Assembly: GCA_040389905.1 (NCBI GenBank)
Contig: JAZJZK010000050.1
Coordinates: forward strand, 1 to 12,588
Direction: 5' to 3'
DNA length: 12,588 nucleotides
Origin: Gemmatimonadota bacterium
GTDB taxonomy: Bacteria; Gemmatimonadota; Gemmatimonadetes; Gemmatimonadales; Gemmatimonadaceae
Shown: positions 1 to 12,588 of the stretch, one piece after another
Layout: the number at the start of each line of letters is the position of its first letter
How positions within the stretch are numbered: position 1 is the stretch's first letter
Program-made: the position numbers and the translations under genes
The notes under the pieces: generated by a model
What the model saw: the letters and a program-made list of their open reading frames with translations, nothing else
Told to the model about the DNA's origin: nothing
Databases searched by the model: none

Positions 1-42
1 ACTCTTTCATTCGCGACTCCACGCCGGTTTATCCCGGCGCAC
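1..42 (-). mobile_element. Probable 5' end of a group II intron, truncated by the window edge
   Basis: The reverse complement of 42..1 reads GTGCGCCGGGATAAACCGGCGTGGAGTCGCGAATGAAAGAGT. It begins with the GUGYG 5' splice consensus. The CGCCGG/CCGGCG stem and GCGAATGAAAGAGT that follow resemble, from memory, the 5' ends of bacterial class E-like introns. Only 42 nt are visible; no domain V or RT gene is in the window. Confidence 0.6.
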
Positions 43-55
43 CGTCCTCTGCGGT
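43..55 (-). repeat. Partial copy of the ACCRCAGAGGACR repeat abutting the putative intron
   Basis: The minus strand 55..43 reads ACCGCAGAGGACG. The plus strand 12514..12526 reads ACCACAGAGGACA. They are 11/13 identical and both differences are G/A transitions. Confidence 0.55.
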
Positions 56-77
56 AAAGTGTTTCTTGCTTTACTGC
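51..77. other. Stem-loop downstream of the lipoprotein gene (possible terminator or part of the repeat element)
   Basis: GCGGTAAAGT (51-60) pairs with GCTTTACTGC (68-77): 10 bp including two G-U pairs on the + strand, with a 7-nt loop. Confidence 0.4.
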
Positions 78-102
78 CGTTCCTTACTGACCCGTATTGG
101 AT

Positions 103-981
103 CTAGAACGGCCGACGCCGGCGCGACACGGTGGCAGCGGACGCCACGCTCACCTTGCCCGTCCCTTTCGCCACCCACTGACGCCACGTCGCGTCGAGCA
201 CGTCCAGCGACACGCGTGAATCGACATGCGACATGATTTCCGACATGCTCGCGCCACCAAGTAGCGGAACGAGGAGATCGTGCGTCGGGTCCATCCCGAT
301 TTCATTACGCAGGAATTCGAGCACGCTCGTCGCCTGTGCGACAAAGAGTGGGCTTCCTCGTCCGGTCGACGCTGCGGCAAACAGCGACGCGAGCGCGGGT
401 GCCTTCCCGAGTTGCTGTTTCATCCGTCGCGCCGCTTGTGCCGATGCATCGGCGTTCGCGAGCGTCTGGACCGCGGCCTCCTGGAACCACGCTGGCACGA
501 CGGCTCCGTGAATCGGGCGTGATGCGTATCCGCCGTCCTCGACGGTGTTGGCCCACGCGTTCGCGTATGCGTCAACCCAACTGGTGGCGGCCTTCGCCGT
601 CAATGCGCGACGACGCTCCACGCCGTTGGTGCTGATGATCAGCGGCGACGTGCCGCGCGATTGCCGCAATTCGGGGTGAGAGGCGTCCTCCACCATGACG
701 ACGATGCGCGGCGCATCATCGCCGAACAACTCCGTGAACCGCATGGCCGTTGACTGGAGCGCGGGCACCAGTGCTCGTGCCGCCGCCTCGGATTTCGACT
801 GCACCGTAAAAGCGGCATCGCCGTGCGCATAGGTCGTACTCGTCGCGGGCGCGTCAGTTGACTGCTGCGGCGCCAGCGCGCCCGTGTGCAGCGGTTGCGA
901 GACACACCCAGCCATCACGGCACCAAGAGCGCTCAGGGTAGCCAATGTGCGGCAAGCACGTGCGGTCACGGTGTTCGTCAT
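103..981 (-). CDS. Putative lipoprotein with a degenerate peptidase MA-like domain (292 aa)
   Basis: GAGGA RBS at 990-986. Signal peptide ends in the lipobox-like MAG|C. Motifs VPAWFQEA, FVAQATSVLEFL and LDATWRQWV resemble the C-terminal half of peptidase MA family proteins. No HExxH is present. Confidence 0.75.
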   Translation of the reverse strand: MTNTVTARACRTLATLSALGAVMAGCVSQPLHTGALAPQQSTDAPATSTTYAHGDAAFTVQSKSEAAARALVPALQSTAMRFTELFGDDAPRIVVMVEDASHPELRQSRGTSPLIISTNGVERRRALTAKAATSWVDAYANAWANTVEDGGYASRPIHGAVVPAWFQEAAVQTLANADASAQAARRMKQQLGKAPALASLFAAASTGRGSPLFVAQATSVLEFLRNEIGMDPTHDLLVPLLGGASMSEIMSHVDSRVSLDVLDATWRQWVAKGTGKVSVASAATVSRRRRPF

Positions 982-2959: not shown

Positions 2960-5900
2960 TTACTGTGCCCGCGGCAGCGTCAGCACGAACGTACTCCCTT
3001 CGCCCAGCATGCTTCGCACCGACAGCTCGCCACCCATCCGCCGGGCGAGCTCGCGACTGATCGCCAGGCCGAGACCCACGCCCTCGATTCCAACGCTCGT
3101 CAGGTTGCGGTTGACCTGCACGAAGGGATCGAAGATACGCTGAAGTTGATGCTCGGCGATTCCACGCCCTGTGTCGCTCATCTCCAACGTCACCGTCGAT
3201 TCATCCGCGCGCACGAGCACGCCGATCGTTCCCCTGTCGGTGAACTTGATCGCATTCGTCGCCAGGTTGATCAGGATCTGCTGCAACTTCTCCTCGTCGG
3301 CGAAGAACGAGACCTCGAACGTGCCACACGCGAACTCGAGGCCCTTCTCGCGAAGCTGCGGATCGATCATCGTCTGAAGGAGCCCCAGCGCGTGCGTCGC
3401 CGAGACGCCCACGATGTGGAACTCCACATGCCCAGCTTCGACCTTTGCGAAATTCAGAATGTCGTTGATGAGGGACAGCAGGTGACGGGCGCTGCGCTTG
3501 ATGCGAAGCAGGTCGGAGTGCTGCTCCTGGGTCAGGGGCCCATGAATCTCCAGCTGCATCAGGTCGGCGTAGCCGCCGATCGCATTGAGCGGCGTTCGCA
3601 GGTCGTGACTCATGCTCGCGAGAAATGACGCCTTCGTGGAATTCGCTTCCACGGCCTCCGACCGCGCTGCCACGGCGTCGATCAAGAGCAACCGCCGGCT
3701 CTCCGACGTTTCTTCAGCGCTCGCACCGGCTTTCTTCGACGCGTCAATATCCGTGAACACGAGAACTGCGCCATCCACCTTTCGGTCCACACCAACATAC
3801 GGTCGAACGGTCAGCGCCCACCAGTTTCCGCGATCGTCCCGGACATCCGCATGCGTGACGATGAGCGTCGCGATCGTCTCCAACACGCGCGCCTCGAGTT
3901 CCGGGTAGTCGACGCGCAACTTGACATCGCCCAGGGGACGACCGACGTCCGTGGCAATGACACGGAAGACGCGATCGGTGGCCGGCGTGAAGCGACGAAT
4001 GATCAGGTGCCCGTCGACGATCAGGATCGGGATCTGGGTGCTCGCGAAAATGTTGGCGAGGTCCCCCGAGATGGTGGCCAGGTCTCGGCTGCGATGCCGC
4101 AGCTCCTCGTTGACGGTGGTCAGTTCTTCGTTGGTGGACTGAACCTCTTCCTTGGTTGTCTCCAGCTCCTCGTTGGTGCTCTGGAATTCCTCGTTGCTGG
4201 ACTGGATCTCCTCGTTAGCCGCGCGCAGATCCTCGTTGGCCGTCTCGTATTGCGCGATGACGTCCTGAAGATGGCGCTTGGCTTCGGCCAGGAGCTCACG
4301 CAGTTGTGCCACCTCATTCGCGGCTCCTCCCTCGTGTGACGCATGCCCGGCGGGTTCCCTTTCGAACGGCGATTGTGCGAGCGAGACGGACGCGAGCTCG
4401 TGCCGAAACAAGACGACGTAAAGTCGTTCGTTCGTCGCTGCCGATTGAAATGGCAGTACATCGATGGACACGTGGCGGACGACATCGCCGTCACGGAGAA
4501 CGATGTTTACCTCTCGCGCGTCGGTCCCACTCGCTCTCGCGCGCTCGAACGCCGCCCGAAAACGCGGAATCAGCTCGGCGCGCGCCAGCTTCAGCAGGTG
4601 CAGGCTCGCCGTACCGGGCGCGATCTGAAGGAATCCCGCGGTGTCACCACGGAACTGGAGGATTTCGAGACGATCATTGATCACGACGCCGGGAGGCCCG
4701 ATTCTGTTGAGCACGACTCGGTCGGCATCTCGCTCGACGGCACTCGACGGAGACTGTCCGGGAGCGCGCGCGGCAACGACGCGTGTCGCGGCCTTTGGCT
4801 CGGCGCGCAGTGAGAGTTCGAGGTTGGATGTCCGACGCGCGTTCGGCTTCGGGCGGAAGATGCGGTGGTGCTTGTCGAAGGGCGTGAAGTGTTCCGACGA
4901 CGCGGACTCCGCGGGCCCGATGAGGAGCAGACCGCCGGGATTGAGCGCGTAGTGGAAGACTGGCATCACCGCCTGCTGGAGCGTCGCGTCGAAGTAGATC
5001 AGCACGTTGCGGCAGGTGATCAGGTCGAGCTGGGAGAAGGGCGGGTCCCGAAACAGATTGTGCGTCGCGAAGACGCAGAGATCGCGGACACGTCGCGTAA
5101 TCCGGTAGCCGGCGTCCTCGCTGACGAAAAAGCGGCGCAACCGCTCCGCCGACACGTCGGCGGCAATCGAGTACGGGTAGAGTCCAGCGCGAGCGTGGGT
5201 GATGGCGCTTGCACTGAGATCGGTTGCGAAGATCTGAATCTCCGTCTCGGCGGCAAGCTCCCCGAGGAACTCGAGCAGGACGATGGCGAGCGAATACACT
5301 TCCTCGCCGGTCGAGCAGCCAGCGACCCATACGCGAATCGGGGCATCGGGCGCACGCCCGCGCATGAGTTGGGGAAAGCCGAGCCGCGCCAATGCGTCGA
5401 ACGTCTCCGGGTCCCGGAAAAAGCGCGTCACGCCGATCAGCAGGTCCTCATGCAGAGCATCCAGCTCTTCTGGGTGTTCTCGAACGTGGGCCAGGTACTC
5501 GCCACGGGTTTCCGTCTTGTGCGCGATCATGCGTCGCACGATGCGGCGATGCACCGTGGCCCGGCGATAGTGCCTGAAGTCGACGCCGGTGCGATTCCGC
5601 AGAAGCAGGAGGATTTTCGTCGCGTCCTCGTCGTGCTGCGCGCGCTCGGCGGAGCCGTCTCCTTCGCGCGCGGCACGCGCAATGTCCGTCAGCCGCTCGG
5701 CAATCTGTTCTGGCGCGAGGACGAAATCCACGCAACCCGTGGCGACGGCGCGGTCGGGCATACTCGCGACCTGCGCGGAGGCCGAGTCCTGCGCGAGCGT
5801 GATGCCGCCCGCCTGCTTGATGGCCTCGATTCCAACGGCGCCATCAGATCCCGCGCCGGAGAGTATCACGCCGATCGCATCGCTTCCGTGGACGTCGGCG

Positions 5901-6328
5901 AGGGACACCAGGAAGGCGTCGATCACCGTGTGCACGCCGCGGAGCCGTGGGGACTGGACAACTCGCAAGTGTCCGTCGGTGAGCGTCATGATGGCGCCCG
6001 GCGGAATCACATAGGCGTGATTGGCCACAACGCCCATGCCGTCCTCCGCCAATACCACTGGCACTGAAGCAGATCGCCCCAGAATCTCGGGGAGCAGACT
6101 GTCGTGTGACGGATCCAGATGTTGCACGAGGACGTAGGCCATGCCCGTGTCCGCCGGCAGCGCACGCACCAGCCGCGTGAAGGCGGCGAGTCCGCCGGCC
6201 GAGGCACCTATCCCGACGACGGTGGGGTGCGAAGGAGGTGGGGGCGGACCAGACCGCGTGTATGGCGCACCGGCAGTCGGCACATCTCGTACGTCTGGCC
6301 CTTCGGTCCCACGCCCGCCAGTTGTCAT
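2960..6328 (-). CDS. CheB methylesterase / CheR methyltransferase / coiled coil / PAS / histidine kinase fusion (about 1122 aa)
   Basis: CheB triad motifs GASAGG, VQHLDP and GAGSDG. CheR motifs VTRFFRD, WVAGCSTGEEVYS, ATDLS and CRNVLIYF. NEExQS heptads, a PAS-like segment, H-box SHDLRTPLNAI, N-box NLATNAIKFT, DTGRGI, FDPF and GVGLGL. Start ATG 6328 is preceded by GGGAGAG; the exact start is uncertain. Confidence 0.95.
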   Translation of the reverse strand: MTTGGRGTEGPDVRDVPTAGAPYTRSGPPPPPSHPTVVGIGASAGGLAAFTRLVRALPADTGMAYVLVQHLDPSHDSLLPEILGRSASVPVVLAEDGMGVVANHAYVIPPGAIMTLTDGHLRVVQSPRLRGVHTVIDAFLVSLADVHGSDAIGVILSGAGSDGAVGIEAIKQAGGITLAQDSASAQVASMPDRAVATGCVDFVLAPEQIAERLTDIARAAREGDGSAERAQHDEDATKILLLLRNRTGVDFRHYRRATVHRRIVRRMIAHKTETRGEYLAHVREHPEELDALHEDLLIGVTRFFRDPETFDALARLGFPQLMRGRAPDAPIRVWVAGCSTGEEVYSLAIVLLEFLGELAAETEIQIFATDLSASAITHARAGLYPYSIAADVSAERLRRFFVSEDAGYRITRRVRDLCVFATHNLFRDPPFSQLDLITCRNVLIYFDATLQQAVMPVFHYALNPGGLLLIGPAESASSEHFTPFDKHHRIFRPKPNARRTSNLELSLRAEPKAATRVVAARAPGQSPSSAVERDADRVVLNRIGPPGVVINDRLEILQFRGDTAGFLQIAPGTASLHLLKLARAELIPRFRAAFERARASGTDAREVNIVLRDGDVVRHVSIDVLPFQSAATNERLYVVLFRHELASVSLAQSPFEREPAGHASHEGGAANEVAQLRELLAEAKRHLQDVIAQYETANEDLRAANEEIQSSNEEFQSTNEELETTKEEVQSTNEELTTVNEELRHRSRDLATISGDLANIFASTQIPILIVDGHLIIRRFTPATDRVFRVIATDVGRPLGDVKLRVDYPELEARVLETIATLIVTHADVRDDRGNWWALTVRPYVGVDRKVDGAVLVFTDIDASKKAGASAEETSESRRLLLIDAVAARSEAVEANSTKASFLASMSHDLRTPLNAIGGYADLMQLEIHGPLTQEQHSDLLRIKRSARHLLSLINDILNFAKVEAGHVEFHIVGVSATHALGLLQTMIDPQLREKGLEFACGTFEVSFFADEEKLQQILINLATNAIKFTDRGTIGVLVRADESTVTLEMSDTGRGIAEHQLQRIFDPFVQVNRNLTSVGIEGVGLGLAISRELARRMGGELSVRSMLGEGSTFVLTLPRAQ

Positions 6329-6348
6329 TACTCTCCCGCTCGGTACGG

Positions 6349-6357
6349 AACATAGCA
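6349..6357 (-). promoter_or_regulatory. Candidate extended -10 promoter (TGcTATGTT) for the CheBR kinase gene
   Basis: TGn plus TAnnnT match 20 nt upstream of ATG 6328, in an AT-richer intergenic patch. Confidence 0.4.
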
Positions 6358-6385
6358 TAATTGGGCCCACTTGCTCGGCTGGGCG

Positions 6386-6437
6386 AAAAAGCAGCGTCTT
6401 GAAAGCGCTTCCAGTCGCCTTGTTCCGCTGTCTTTTT
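6386..6437. terminator. Possible terminator-like inverted repeat
   Basis: AAAAAGCAGCG (6386-6396) pairs with CGCTG-t-CTTTTT (6426-6437). It starts 15 nt after the stop of the upstream minus-strand gene and has a T-run on either strand. The loop is atypically long (29 nt). Confidence 0.35.
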
Positions 6438-6452
6438 CCGGCCATACACCAG

Positions 6453-7172
6453 TCAGCTACACGGCGGATCGTTCTGCCCGACCGGGTGCCCCTGCACTGC
6501 AACATCGATCGAACCGAATACCGATGTATCCGCAGTGGCGCGCGCGACCACTTTGAGAAACCCGGTCGTTGGACGACATCGATAGGTGATGGTACCGGCG
6601 GAATAGTCGAAGTTCACGGAGGCGGTATCTCCGGTGATCCGCCACACGACGCCTTGCGGAAATCCTGGGTCGGCATCGAGAAAGGGTCGTATGACCCGTG
6701 GTGTGTTGATCCCGGACGACGATCGGTCGAGTATCAAATTTCCCCCCAGGAGAAAGAGGGAGCGCACCGGCGGCGCGTTCGGTGCGAGCGACAGGGTTAT
6801 CGGAAGTTGCACGACGTGGTAGCCCTGGGCCTCCGTTCGGCCGCAGGCACCGTTGAAGGTCTGAACTCCGGACACCAAGGTGTCGTTGTAATACGGCTTC
6901 GAGACAAGCACGTCATATCGTGGACCGCCCGTTAAGTCGATGGGCGATATCGTTAGCGTGTCGTATGCCTCCCGGTATGCAACGCGCCGAGGCCCATCAA
7001 TCGCGAATACCGTTGCGCCGAGCGCCAGTCCCCTGCCTGCCGCGTTCCGGATCGTGACATTGAGGGGCATGTATCCCACCAAAATGCAGTCGCCATCAGA
7101 ACCCGTAATGCCGCACGCCGTTGCCCCGAGCGCGCCGATCGTCAACACGACAGCGATTACGGTTTCGCGCAT
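6453..7172 (-). CDS. Hypothetical lipoprotein with probable beta-sandwich / Ig-like domains (about 239 aa)
   Basis: MRETVIAVVLTIGALGATA|C is a lipoprotein signal (start 7172; 7196 is an alternative). The mature part is beta-strand rich. The C-terminal VVWRIT..ASVNF..GTIT..VVARATADTSVFGSIDVAV segment resembles bacterial Ig-like repeats. Confidence 0.7.
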   Translation of the reverse strand: MRETVIAVVLTIGALGATACGITGSDGDCILVGYMPLNVTIRNAAGRGLALGATVFAIDGPRRVAYREAYDTLTISPIDLTGGPRYDVLVSKPYYNDTLVSGVQTFNGACGRTEAQGYHVVQLPITLSLAPNAPPVRSLFLLGGNLILDRSSSGINTPRVIRPFLDADPGFPQGVVWRITGDTASVNFDYSAGTITYRCRPTTGFLKVVARATADTSVFGSIDVAVQGHPVGQNDPPCS

Positions 7173-7971: not shown

Positions 7972-7976
7972 TCCTG

Positions 7977-8076
7977 TAGTGGCACGGGGTGCCTGAACGC
8001 GGAAACATTCGCGCGCAGGCTGAGATTACACCCGTCGAACCTGATCTGGGTAATTCCAGCGAAGGGAGCGTCACTG
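7977..8076 (+). promoter_or_regulatory. TPP riboswitch (THI-box) aptamer
   Basis: Conserved blocks in canonical order: GGGGTGCC (7986-7993), GCTGAGA (8019-8025), ACCC, GAACCTGATCTGGGTAATTCCAGCGAAGGGA (8037-8067). P1 is AGTGGC 7978-7983 paired with GTCACT 8070-8075. P3 is closed by GCCTG/CAGGC. Confidence 0.96.
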
Positions 8077-8174
8077 GCACTTGGCGTCTCGACGTTCTGG
8101 CCCTGCGCCAGCACTCCTGGTCGCCAAGCTGCTCCGCTCCCGGCGCGATCACTTGGGCACATCGGAGCGGCATC

Positions 8175-10284: not shown

Positions 10285-10839
10285 TCAGCGCGCGGCCCCA
10301 ATCTCCTCGAGCACGCTCGCTGCGGCGGTGAGCCGCGCATCGCCGCTGCCCTGGATGATCACGTACTCAGCGCCTCGCATCACGAGCTCGTCCCGGAACA
10401 ACTCGAACATCCCTTCACGCTGCGTCGGGCGATCGCGGATTCCATCGGGCTCCCACGGGAGGTCGACCGCGCACAGCAGGTAGACGTGAGCCCTTCGCAC
10501 GATGGCCTCACGTTCGAGCCAATCAGGCGCCGTCCCGTAGTAGTGACGCGCGTACACCACCGTGCTCATGAGGTCTGTGTCGAGCACCATCGTCGGTCGC
10601 TGGCGCGCGCGCGCGCGGCGTGCGGCGGCGTTGGCCTCCGCCATGTGCTCACGCGCGATCGGCTCCACGTCGCTCTCCGTGAGCGGCCGACGCACGCGCT
10701 CCGCATAGGCCCGCGCTGCCTCGAACACGCACTCCGTGTCCGCGAGCTCGGCAAGCTGTTGCGCGAGGGTCGTTTTCCCCGTGCACTCCGGCCCGATCAC
10801 ACACACGCGCCGCAGCGGCGATCGTCCGTGGGGACTCAT
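10285..10839 (-). CDS. Stand-alone NadR-type P-loop kinase (ribosylnicotinamide kinase-like, AAA_28 type; 184 aa)
   Basis: Walker A GPECTGKTT plus EAARAY, LDTDLMSTVVY and YLLCAVDLPWEPDGIRD motifs. ATG 10839 overlaps the transporter's TGA stop (ATGA overlap). Confidence 0.88.
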   Translation of the reverse strand: MSPHGRSPLRRVCVIGPECTGKTTLAQQLAELADTECVFEAARAYAERVRRPLTESDVEPIAREHMAEANAAARRARARQRPTMVLDTDLMSTVVYARHYYGTAPDWLEREAIVRRAHVYLLCAVDLPWEPDGIRDRPTQREGMFELFRDELVMRGAEYVIIQGSGDARLTAAASVLEEIGAAR

Positions 10840-11420
10840 GCGAGTGCCGGCTCCGCGATCGGTCGTGTAGTCATTGAACGACGCCAATCGATGTAACCAC
10901 GCGCGGCCAGGAAGAGGAACACGACATAGAGGCCGGCGGTCACGTAGAGGTGTTTGTAGATGAACATGCCCACATAGAGGACGTCGACAAAAATCCAGAC
11001 AAGCCAGTTTTCGAGCTTCTTCCTCGTCATCATCCACTGCGCGACGAGACTGGTGCTCGAGAGGAATGAATCCATGAATGGTAACGCCGCGTCCGTCGTC
11101 TTCGACAGAATGACGCCAAGGCCCGCGAACCCCACGAGTCCGATCGCCGTGAGCATGCCAGCCAATCGGCCATTCGTCTTCGTCACATGCAGCTCAGTCT
11201 TGTTCTCTCCGCCGTGCAGCCATTCGTACCACCCGTAGACGGAGAGTACCGCATAGATGACCTGAAGCCCCATGTCCGCGTACAGTTTCTCCTGAAAAAA
11301 CACCACGGTGTAGGCCAGGACGTTCACGATTCCCGTCGGCCAACTCCAGATATTCTGGCGAACGCTCAAGTACACGCTGATCGCGCCGACGACCGCGGCG
11401 AAGAGCTCGAAGGGACTCAC
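10836..11420 (-). CDS. pnuC: PnuC-family vitamin transporter (nicotinamide riboside / thiamine / riboflavin family; 194 aa)
   Basis: Multiple TM helices. Motifs RQNIWSWPTGIVN, LYADMGLQ, YGWYEW, PFMDS, AQWMMTRKKLENWLVWIFVD and GYIDW. Start is probably GTG 11420. Confidence 0.93.
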   Translation of the reverse strand: MSPFELFAAVVGAISVYLSVRQNIWSWPTGIVNVLAYTVVFFQEKLYADMGLQVIYAVLSVYGWYEWLHGGENKTELHVTKTNGRLAGMLTAIGLVGFAGLGVILSKTTDAALPFMDSFLSSTSLVAQWMMTRKKLENWLVWIFVDVLYVGMFIYKHLYVTAGLYVVFLFLAARGYIDWRRSMTTRPIAEPALA

Positions 11421-11544
11421 AGCAGGGGTGTGGGAGAAGATTCGGTGCCCGAAGATACGGCGCGGCACTCCGCGAGGGCAGTACGCCGGAACGATTCTCG
11501 CCCATCGCGAGTTCATCCCCGACATCATCTCATTGGAGGACGGA

Positions 11545-12495
11545 ATGGCCGAAAAGAAGATCATTGCGGTAGTTGGCGCCACCGGCGCACAGGGCGGTGG
11601 CGTCGCACATGCCATTCTCGCGGACCCCAATAGCGAATTTGCCGTTCGCGCCATCACGCGTGATGTCGACTCCGACAAGGCGAAGGCCCTCGCGGCGGCG
11701 GGTGCGGAGATCGTCTCGGCCGACGTCGACGACCTCGAGAGCCTCACCAGGGCGTTCGAGGGCGCCTATGGCGCGTTTTGCGTCACGTTCTTCTGGGCGC
11801 ATTTCTCGCCGGAGCGCGAGTTGGCCAGTGCAACGAACATGGCGCAGGCCGCGAAAGCCGCTGGCCTGCAGCATGTCATCTGGTCGACGCTCGAGGATGT
11901 GCGCGAATTCGTTCCGCTCGATGACGCGCGCATGCCGACGCTACAGGGCAAGTACAAAGTCCCCCACTTCGACGCCAAGGGTGAGGCCGACCAGGCCTTC
12001 ATCGAGCGTGGCGTGCCAACCACGTTCCTTTACGCATCATTCTATTGGGACAATTTTATCTACTTTGGATCAGGCCCAAAGAGGGGCCCAGACGGCGCCC
12101 TAGCATTGACGCTCCCAATCGGCCAGGCGAAGATGGCCGGCGTCGCGTCCGAGGACATTGGAAAGGTCGCGTACGGCATCTTCAGGCAGGGCACGAGCCT
12201 GATCGGCGAGAAGATTGGCGTCGCCGGTGAACTGCTCACCGGGGATGAAATGGCCAGCGCGATGTCGACGGCAATCGGCCAACAGGTCCGCTACAACGAG
12301 GTATCGCCCGACATCTATCGAAGCTTCGGCTTTCCCGGCGCGGACGATCTTGGCAACATGTTTCAGTTCTATCGCGACTTCGAACAGGCGTGCAACACGA
12401 TGCGCGATGTCGAGCGCGCGAAGACCTTCGCGCCGGACATTCAGTCGTTCGATGAGTGGCTGGAAAAACATGCGAAGCAGATTCCGCTCGACTGA
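11545..12495 (+). CDS. NmrA/HSCARG family NAD(P)-binding atypical SDR protein (316 aa)
   Basis: GGAGGA RBS at 11535-11540. Motifs IAVVGATGAQGGGV, VRAITRD, AFEGAYGAFCVTFFW, VIWSTLED and VPHFDAKG. Confidence 0.95.
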   Translation: MAEKKIIAVVGATGAQGGGVAHAILADPNSEFAVRAITRDVDSDKAKALAAAGAEIVSADVDDLESLTRAFEGAYGAFCVTFFWAHFSPERELASATNMAQAAKAAGLQHVIWSTLEDVREFVPLDDARMPTLQGKYKVPHFDAKGEADQAFIERGVPTTFLYASFYWDNFIYFGSGPKRGPDGALALTLPIGQAKMAGVASEDIGKVAYGIFRQGTSLIGEKIGVAGELLTGDEMASAMSTAIGQQVRYNEVSPDIYRSFGFPGADDLGNMFQFYRDFEQACNTMRDVERAKTFAPDIQSFDEWLEKHAKQIPLD

Positions 12496-12513
12496 ACGAA
12501 CAACGAACCATTA

Positions 12514-12560
12514 ACCACAGAGGACACAGAGGACACAGAGGACACAGAGGACACAGAGAA
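12514..12560 (+). repeat. 9-bp tandem repeat (CACAGAGGA)x4 plus CACAGAGAA; probable left arm of a REP-like extragenic element
   Basis: Perfect units start at 12516, 12525, 12534 and 12543, with a one-mismatch unit at 12552. The array begins about 20 nt after the NmrA stop codon. Confidence 0.9.
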
Positions 12561-12588
12561 CTGCGGCAACGCGATAAATGTTTCTCCG

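Follow-up and report, generated by a model that had tools for sequence, protein, structure and literature searches.

The left end of the window, the whole stretch of 12,588 nucleotides analysed here (G000:C50:1-12588, where G000 is the source assembly of 66 contigs), raises the question of whether a group II intron uses a dispersed extragenic repeat as its homing site. On the minus strand, bases 55 to 43 read ACCGCAGAGGACG, and GTGCG begins at base 42. The segment 43..55 (minus strand) is the first unit of a G-type repeat arm (ACCGCAGAGGRCG; 109 such arms in the genome), split by the 5' tip of an intron that we assign to class E (1..42, minus strand; GUGCG start and first stem of domain I). 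Base 1 of the window is a contig end, which cuts the tip, and the assembly holds no sequence to the left of it. The evidence described below makes it quite probable that at least four copies of this class E intron occupy one base of a dispersed hairpin repeat, a site likely reached by ordinary retrohoming through EBS1 CGUCCU and EBS3 G.

Intron junctions and the hairpin repeat

The identical 42-nt tip terminates two further contigs, C1 and C66, each time preceded by ACCGCAGAGGGCG, and the ends of contigs C2, C25, C27 and C37 carry the 3' strand of domain V followed by a domain VI that closes with AC. Across all 66 contigs, three GTGCG starts and four AC ends were detected, with no interior. 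All seven junctions lie at the identical base of one dispersed hairpin repeat (ACCGCAGAGGRCG before the intron, CRRAGG after it), and the exon after the intron end reads CAGAGG on C2, CGGAGG on C25, CAAAGG on C27 and CAGAGG on C37. The first-pass annotation had proposed a group II intron at the left end of the window and had asked whether its 3' exon resumes the repeat and whether other copies share this flank; the GUGCG and AC boundaries, with 7/7 junctions in one register and 4/4 ends continuing the repeat, bear out the proposal in each respect. Since three starts and four ends were located, the genome contains at least four copies. Domain VI of the 3' halves is complete and folds as a stem, and only the 3' strand of domain V is kept; these cut ends, with their partial domain V, gave no Rfam match, and four of the four full-length sister introns scanned matched RF00029, three of them at or above the gathering score. 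The intron interior was probably collapsed and dropped in assembly, because full-length sisters measure 1913-1932 nt and the smallest contig 2028 nt. The 5' half belonging to the C25 3' half is absent from the assembly. Two RT and two domain V matches on contig C31 were rejected as parts of this intron, as they belong to different introns. A repeat-homing intron accounts for seven contig ends in this assembly.

The gene order of relatives joined two pairs of 5' and 3' halves, C66 with C27 and C1 with C2. The junction-side gene of C66 adjoins the CCA-adding enzyme gene of C27 in 24/24 genus loci examined, and in 22/23 loci the penicillin-binding protein gene of C1 adjoins the gene that comes first on C2, the remaining locus being too short. 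No repeat is visible in the spacers shown for the loci equivalent to C66/C27, which indicates that the repeat came first at C66/C27 in this lineage and the intron later. An uninterrupted A-type hairpin is present in the C1/C2-equivalent spacer of 3/23 genus loci. C50 most likely joins C37, as judged from the repeat subfamily rather than gene order: the outer flank at 56..102 (minus strand) has its best-matching intact copy at C19:7616, which is the second best for the C37 3' half. Gene order gave no C50-C37 join, as the two flanking genes are seldom present in the genus (3/40 and 1/54). At C66/C27 (L160:43-196, L157:54-284), the repeat and intron occupy a short spacer; an AT-rich motif conserved throughout the genus precedes them, and the CCA-adding enzyme gene follows.

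Each of the three placed insertions is oriented in sense with an adjacent gene, which would supply transcription to the intron. In the window, this is a gene of 292 aa without a Pfam match (103..981, minus strand), and the intron lies 60 nt beyond its end in the sense orientation. The position just past a stop codon, noted in the first-pass annotation for both repeat copies of the window, holds for C50 and C1 but fails for C66/C27, which lies between divergent genes. No promoter or terminator consensus was found at the C50 or C66 junctions. On the intron-sense strand, 17/19 flank windows had a positive GC skew, but the values are mostly small and come from four events, too weak for a strand bias.

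The 13-mer family has 226 matches in G000 against about 12 expected, which rules out the chance match that the first-pass annotation had allowed for. In 197 of these 226 matches, the uninterrupted arm continues with CAGAG, CGGAG or CAAAG. Under the stricter repeat pattern used for the arm count, 204 arms (109 G-type and 95 A-type) form 74 inverted pairs of 61-284 nt and 57 single arms, and 71/73 folded pairs beat their shuffles (z < -3). The arms are largely extragenic, with only 9/204 inside crudely called genes, and convergent-gene gaps hold 33/73 pairs, as compared with 367/1,835 of the gaps overall. Such inverted doublets forming hairpins in extragenic DNA are a REPIN-like trait; the 85% complete G000 gave no match to a Y1/RAYT transposase (PF01797). 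Within the genus, the G-type arm has a patchy distribution (15/39 published genomes), and we found no paper on this hairpin repeat in the searchable literature, outside of which most subscription journals lie. In relatives, the arms bracket GxxExxY nuclease genes. Among the 15 GxxExxY loci of five repeat-rich relatives, two have both arms by the pattern, one has the upstream arm and one has variant arms recognised by eye; the remaining loci, as well as the three of G000 itself, have other arms or none. A sister intron tip, known from about 105 nt only (L096/L216), follows a CGGAT-type tandem repeat like the arms at the G000 GxxExxY genes.

At the right end of the window, an uninterrupted A-type arm of 9-nt tandem units (12514..12560, plus strand) follows the stop codon of a sense gene (11428..12495, plus strand), with its partner arm at C50:12730, just past the window. 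The first-pass annotation had used this copy as the comparator, and it indeed belongs to the same repeat family, its 13-mer being identical to ACCGCAGAGGACG at 11/13 positions. However, it is an intron-free member of the A-type subfamily and is predicted to be a non-target, because the A at -1 mismatches EBS1; the true target is the G-type arm, and A-type arms make up 0/3 of the 5' junctions in G000. The A-type hairpin and its upstream flank occur twice around an N run (window 12489-12588 and C50:12730-12888), probably through a scaffolding duplication. Elsewhere in the window, a TPP riboswitch (7975-8085, plus strand; 66 bits), the sole Rfam match, precedes a 756-aa ORF that resembles a TonB-dependent receptor. 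Presumed NadR-type kinase and PnuC-type transporter genes correspond to the ORFs at 10285-11037 and 10836-11747 (minus strand), and the 1,181-aa frame at 2960-6505 (minus strand) is, we assume, a CheB/CheR fusion with a histidine kinase.

The scaffold duplication beside the 12514 repeat, and the fact that every junction is a contig end known from assembled contigs alone, would suit an artefact of mis-joined contig ends, or a passive spread in which recombination copied one insertion among the repeats. This explanation is highly improbable, since the junction flanks are unique beyond 13-16 nt and represent different repeat subfamilies, the gene order of relatives confirms two joins, and the same junction occurs in two other assemblies.

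Class assignment and guide pairing

The interior of the G000 intron was represented by proxies: EBS1, EBS3 and the ORF were taken from two metagenome copies, L110 and L150, and from the protein P0001, with a 5' end shared at 41/42 nt and the fit of domain V as the links. L110 and L150 derive from two other assemblies and were obtained by a metagenome junction scan requiring the repeat flank, which gave 44 matches, two of them this intron in this repeat; the other 42 were rejected as not being introns. Both copies have the same junction as G000, and because the search pattern required the repeat flank, they show existence, not specificity. Their domain I matches RF02005 at 183 bits, and an RT frame is present. 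In both copies, the RT gene is interrupted at one and the same position (PQG motif, intron base about 1,165) by identically starting DNA, which suggests a site-specific element targeting intron RT genes.

P0001 is an intact RT/maturase of 448 aa with the YADD motif, 99% identical to L110, and was not found in the G000 assembly. The protein ends just past the maturase region and has no endonuclease domain, with RVT_1 and a weak GIIM as its only Pfam matches. With inferred codons, its C-terminus fits a domain V 5' strand complementary to GCACGG of the G000 3' strand; none of the 29 full-length sisters has such a 5' strand. P0001 shares 63% identity with a labelled class E protein from a Burkholderia plasmid and 32% with the class D protein of pSymA, and a quick tree placed it with class E (100 SH-aLRT), subject to a long-branch warning and to a reference set without classes A, B, F, G, CL and ML. 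The alpha' segment lies in the terminal loop of the DId stem, with 4/4 pairing in 39/55 introns and a compensatory GCCA/TGGC change in L110, and at or next to the hairpin tip in 5/5 folded introns. The domain V loop, missing in G000, counts 5 nt by eye between the GCRG/CYGC stem in the sisters, and 3, 4 or 5 nt in 7, 13 and 9 of 29 sisters by energy folding. Judged from the protein and the position of alpha', the intron belongs to class E (IIE), with a protein lacking the endonuclease. The class C mode of insertion at terminator or attC hairpins, raised in the first-pass annotation, is unsupported because the intron is class E, the junction lies inside the ascending 5' arm of the stem, and one site is a solo arm; furthermore, no terminator was found, and EBS1 spans 6 bp. 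No other copy in this repeat was detected among 99 GTDB loci, 400 family genomes or viral contigs; the single match in the family scan was rejected, as it is not an intron.

An alignment of 54 non-redundant introns that retain domain I intact has six adjacent columns in antiparallel pairing with exon positions -1 to -6 (Watson-Crick 0.87-0.98), and one column that pairs with +1. EBS1 of L110/L150 thus reads CGUCCU (CGTCCT in DNA), and forms 6/6 Watson-Crick pairs with IBS1 AGGACG, which makes up the final six bases of the 5' exon (43..48, minus strand), as the first-pass annotation had anticipated; with AGGGCG, one pair is G-U. EBS3 of these copies is G, and pairs with the C that starts 4/4 G000 3' exons. 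Among the sisters, EBS1 pairs at no fewer than five of six positions in 47/49 introns (mean 5.7, shuffled 2.8) and EBS3 pairs in 21/25, counts that are inflated by kinship, with 16 EBS1 sequences in the 49 introns. One of the two exceptions, L009, has EBS1 GACACG against the flank TGCTGA (1.5/6). The EBS2-IBS2 pairing reaches 3/5 in L110/L150; over the 49 introns, it averages 2.29 versus 1.92 shuffled in a fixed register, and the best register gives no excess (74/500 shuffles reach it). CTGCG was rejected as EBS2, since it is part of a conserved internal stem. The guide read in the near-identical copies matches the junction, which makes it likely that the repeat provides the intron with an ample stock of harmless insertion sites; the original idea of a multi-copy repeat as the homing site, now with seven of seven junctions in it and proxy guides that fit, has held up.

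Retargeting and specificity

The sister introns comprise 99 GTDB loci found via the intron's own 5' end, of which 29 are full-length. Their flanks fall into classes of 26, 17, 14, 11, 11 and 1 loci, plus 19 others, none in this repeat. The sites include an IS5 end (L037) and an IS1182-like end (L040, below the cut-off), and L005 and L021, whose EBS1 is TTATTC, are inserted precisely behind the stop codon of ADOP permease genes, which are multi-copy, a pattern shared by 15 more loci. Sisters with EBS1 CCATGA (L011, L024, L026, L029, L060, L063 and L068) occupy a conserved non-coding stretch, which lies downstream of an IS110-family transposase in the two checked (L011 and L026) and is possibly the RNA region of the IS110 element. 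Several flanks are gene-less inverted-repeat elements or MITEs, as judged by eye. In L041 and L066 (Gemmatimonadaceae), the sister 5' ends follow attC-like sequences, again by eye; class E introns near attC are reported only as 5'-truncated fragments in the available sections of PMC7923331. In a tree of 39/56 candidates (coverage of 950 nt or more), L110/L150 group as sister to an intron from Gemmatimonadaceae whose EBS1 is TAAGCG (100/100). Since this closest sister has TAAGCG and L110/L150 have CGUCCU, the retargeting appears to have replaced nearly the whole of EBS1, and the sisters amount to a natural series of EBS1 swaps, with 16 sequences in 49 introns. L161 (G000:C31:977-4735, minus strand) is a chimeric twintron among attC-like hairpins, with a 5' half that is class C-like, a 3' half that is class E (68% to L067, 64% to P0001) and, between them, a class D intron directly behind the YADD codons; it was possibly formed by recombination or misassembly between two class D copies.

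The abundance of matching sites poses a puzzle. The seven base pairs of EBS1 and EBS3 (AGGRCG followed by C) match 2,458 sites in G000, yet all copies lie within the 122 (5%) that are in repeat arms. Because so many sites match and EBS2 is weak, we infer additional specificity. A determinant beyond seven base pairs is likely, since four of four insertions in arms have a probability of 0.002-0.016 under non-coding-survival models, a figure resting on four events. The protein or a weak EBS2 may read positions -7 to -13, by analogy with the distal-exon reading described in the accessible portions of PMC2882425 and PMC2504315.

The weakness of EBS2 in L110/L150 and the sisters could also mean that the intron reads EBS1 and EBS3 alone and lands at any AGGRCG followed by C, with genic insertions purged afterwards. 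This would agree with the dispensability of EBS2 for splicing of a class E intron tested in vitro, as given in the available part of PMC3753933, and with the sites of the closest sister's guide, TAAGCG (L067, L213), which have no evident repeat; moreover, arms already make up 21-36% of the non-coding EBS1/EBS3 matches by crude gene models. Nevertheless, such survivor bias is unlikely in view of the above probability for four independent arm insertions, even though the models are crude and the events few. Alternatively, the RNP might recognise an extruded hairpin, or a single-stranded intermediate of repeat spread, with EBS1 setting the register only. The folding of 71/73 paired elements far better than shuffles, the partner arm at 3/4 of the 3' halves, and the several sister targets that are likewise inverted-repeat ends would fit such guidance by structure. 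However, when the empty sites were folded, IBS1 was paired within the stem with no stable hairpin ahead of the junction, and at C1/C2 the arm is solo, without a partner, which argues against a class C-like reading of structure. The permease stop-codon targets of the sisters also lack such a repeat, and we regard structural guidance as quite unlikely.

We thus favour ordinary retrohoming into the G-type arms, in which full-length G000 copies of about 1.9 kb, collapsed in the assembly, would be transcribed by host read-through and spliced to give the RNP. The RNP would then reverse-splice into G-type arms, likely in single-stranded DNA at replication forks, while the bases at -7 to -13, read by the protein or a weak EBS2, would supply what seven base pairs lack in specificity. 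The order of arrival would have been repeat first, intron second. A broader view, which we consider doubtful, is that the class E lineage is a seven-base reprogrammable hyperparasite that has largely abandoned EBS2, swaps EBS1 wholesale, and hops between the multi-copy ends of other elements. This branch would then depend on the hairpin arms of a GxxExxY nuclease cassette family not yet described, and would enter them via structures or single-stranded intermediates of repeat spread, so that its target supply would keep growing.

Comparison with known systems

The available parts of PMC4424553 list three specificities of bacterial group II introns, namely homing sites, terminators and attC. Homing of a group II intron into a REP-like repeat was not found in the searchable literature, which leaves out most subscription journals, and this target is not described in the accessible portions of PMC7923331, PMC12584367, PMC3552965, PMC8643678, PMC8919778, PMC10011109 and bioRxiv 2021.01.26.428298. 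Like class C introns, as presented in the available parts of PMC4424553 and PMC7923331, the present intron has many intergenic hairpin-associated sites and no endonuclease; class C introns insert after the hairpin with an EBS1 of 3-4 bp, whereas here a 6-bp EBS1 acts inside the stem arm. Between P0001 and the class C-like RT of C31, the identity is about 40%.

B.c.I1 of Bacillus cereus is a class B intron. It resembles the present one in lacking an endonuclease and in using a conserved non-coding site, in the 3' UTRs of unrelated genes, but the available part of PMC2504315 gives 0-4 targets per genome, versus about 110 here; its plasmid neighbours appear as class B in the Miura table (PMC8919778, as far as available). 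The TeI3/TeI4 introns of Thermosynechococcus elongatus, according to the accessible text of PMC2882425, spread as families by EBS divergence and prefer other introns and insertion elements; the present family appears likewise to have spread by EBS divergence into other mobile elements. TeI3/TeI4 differ in being CL1/IIB1 introns that use EBS2, some with an endonuclease, and their multi-copy targets are introns and an IS rather than a short hairpin repeat. An intron hiding in mobile elements is thus already in print (PMC2882425 and PMC7306698, in the parts available). IS elements that insert into REP sequences (PMC1525189) likewise use a dispersed palindrome as a landing site for a mobile element, and REPIN/RAYT systems (PMC3337134) contain repeat doublets forming long hairpins, as seen in the accessible portions of both papers. 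In contrast to both, the invader here is a retroelement; no Y1/RAYT match was found in the 85% complete G000, and in relatives GxxExxY genes are bracketed by the arms in place of RAYT.

Class E itself offers the closest comparison. Table 3 of Miura et al. 2022 (PMC8919778) assigns the plasmid intron of Burkholderia cenocepacia J2315 to class E, and the protein of that intron is the one with 63% identity to P0001. This intron and Cl.be.I2 (PMC3753933), as far as the available text describes them, share with the present one a length of about 1.9 kb, the same 3' end, the lack of an endonuclease, and exon recognition dominated by EBS1; the same portions of the two papers contain no description of class E target sites or mobility. 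The class and chemistry are thus known, and the very abundant target is unusual, with the interior read from proxy copies and the specificity suggested by four events. The extra determinant, once identified, would reveal the rules of class E targeting and might provide a retargetable tool of compact size. The target of the intron described here is a non-coding repeat represented by 109 G-type arms in the genome, and homing-type chemistry at a site present more than 100 times would remove target saturation at little cost to the host.
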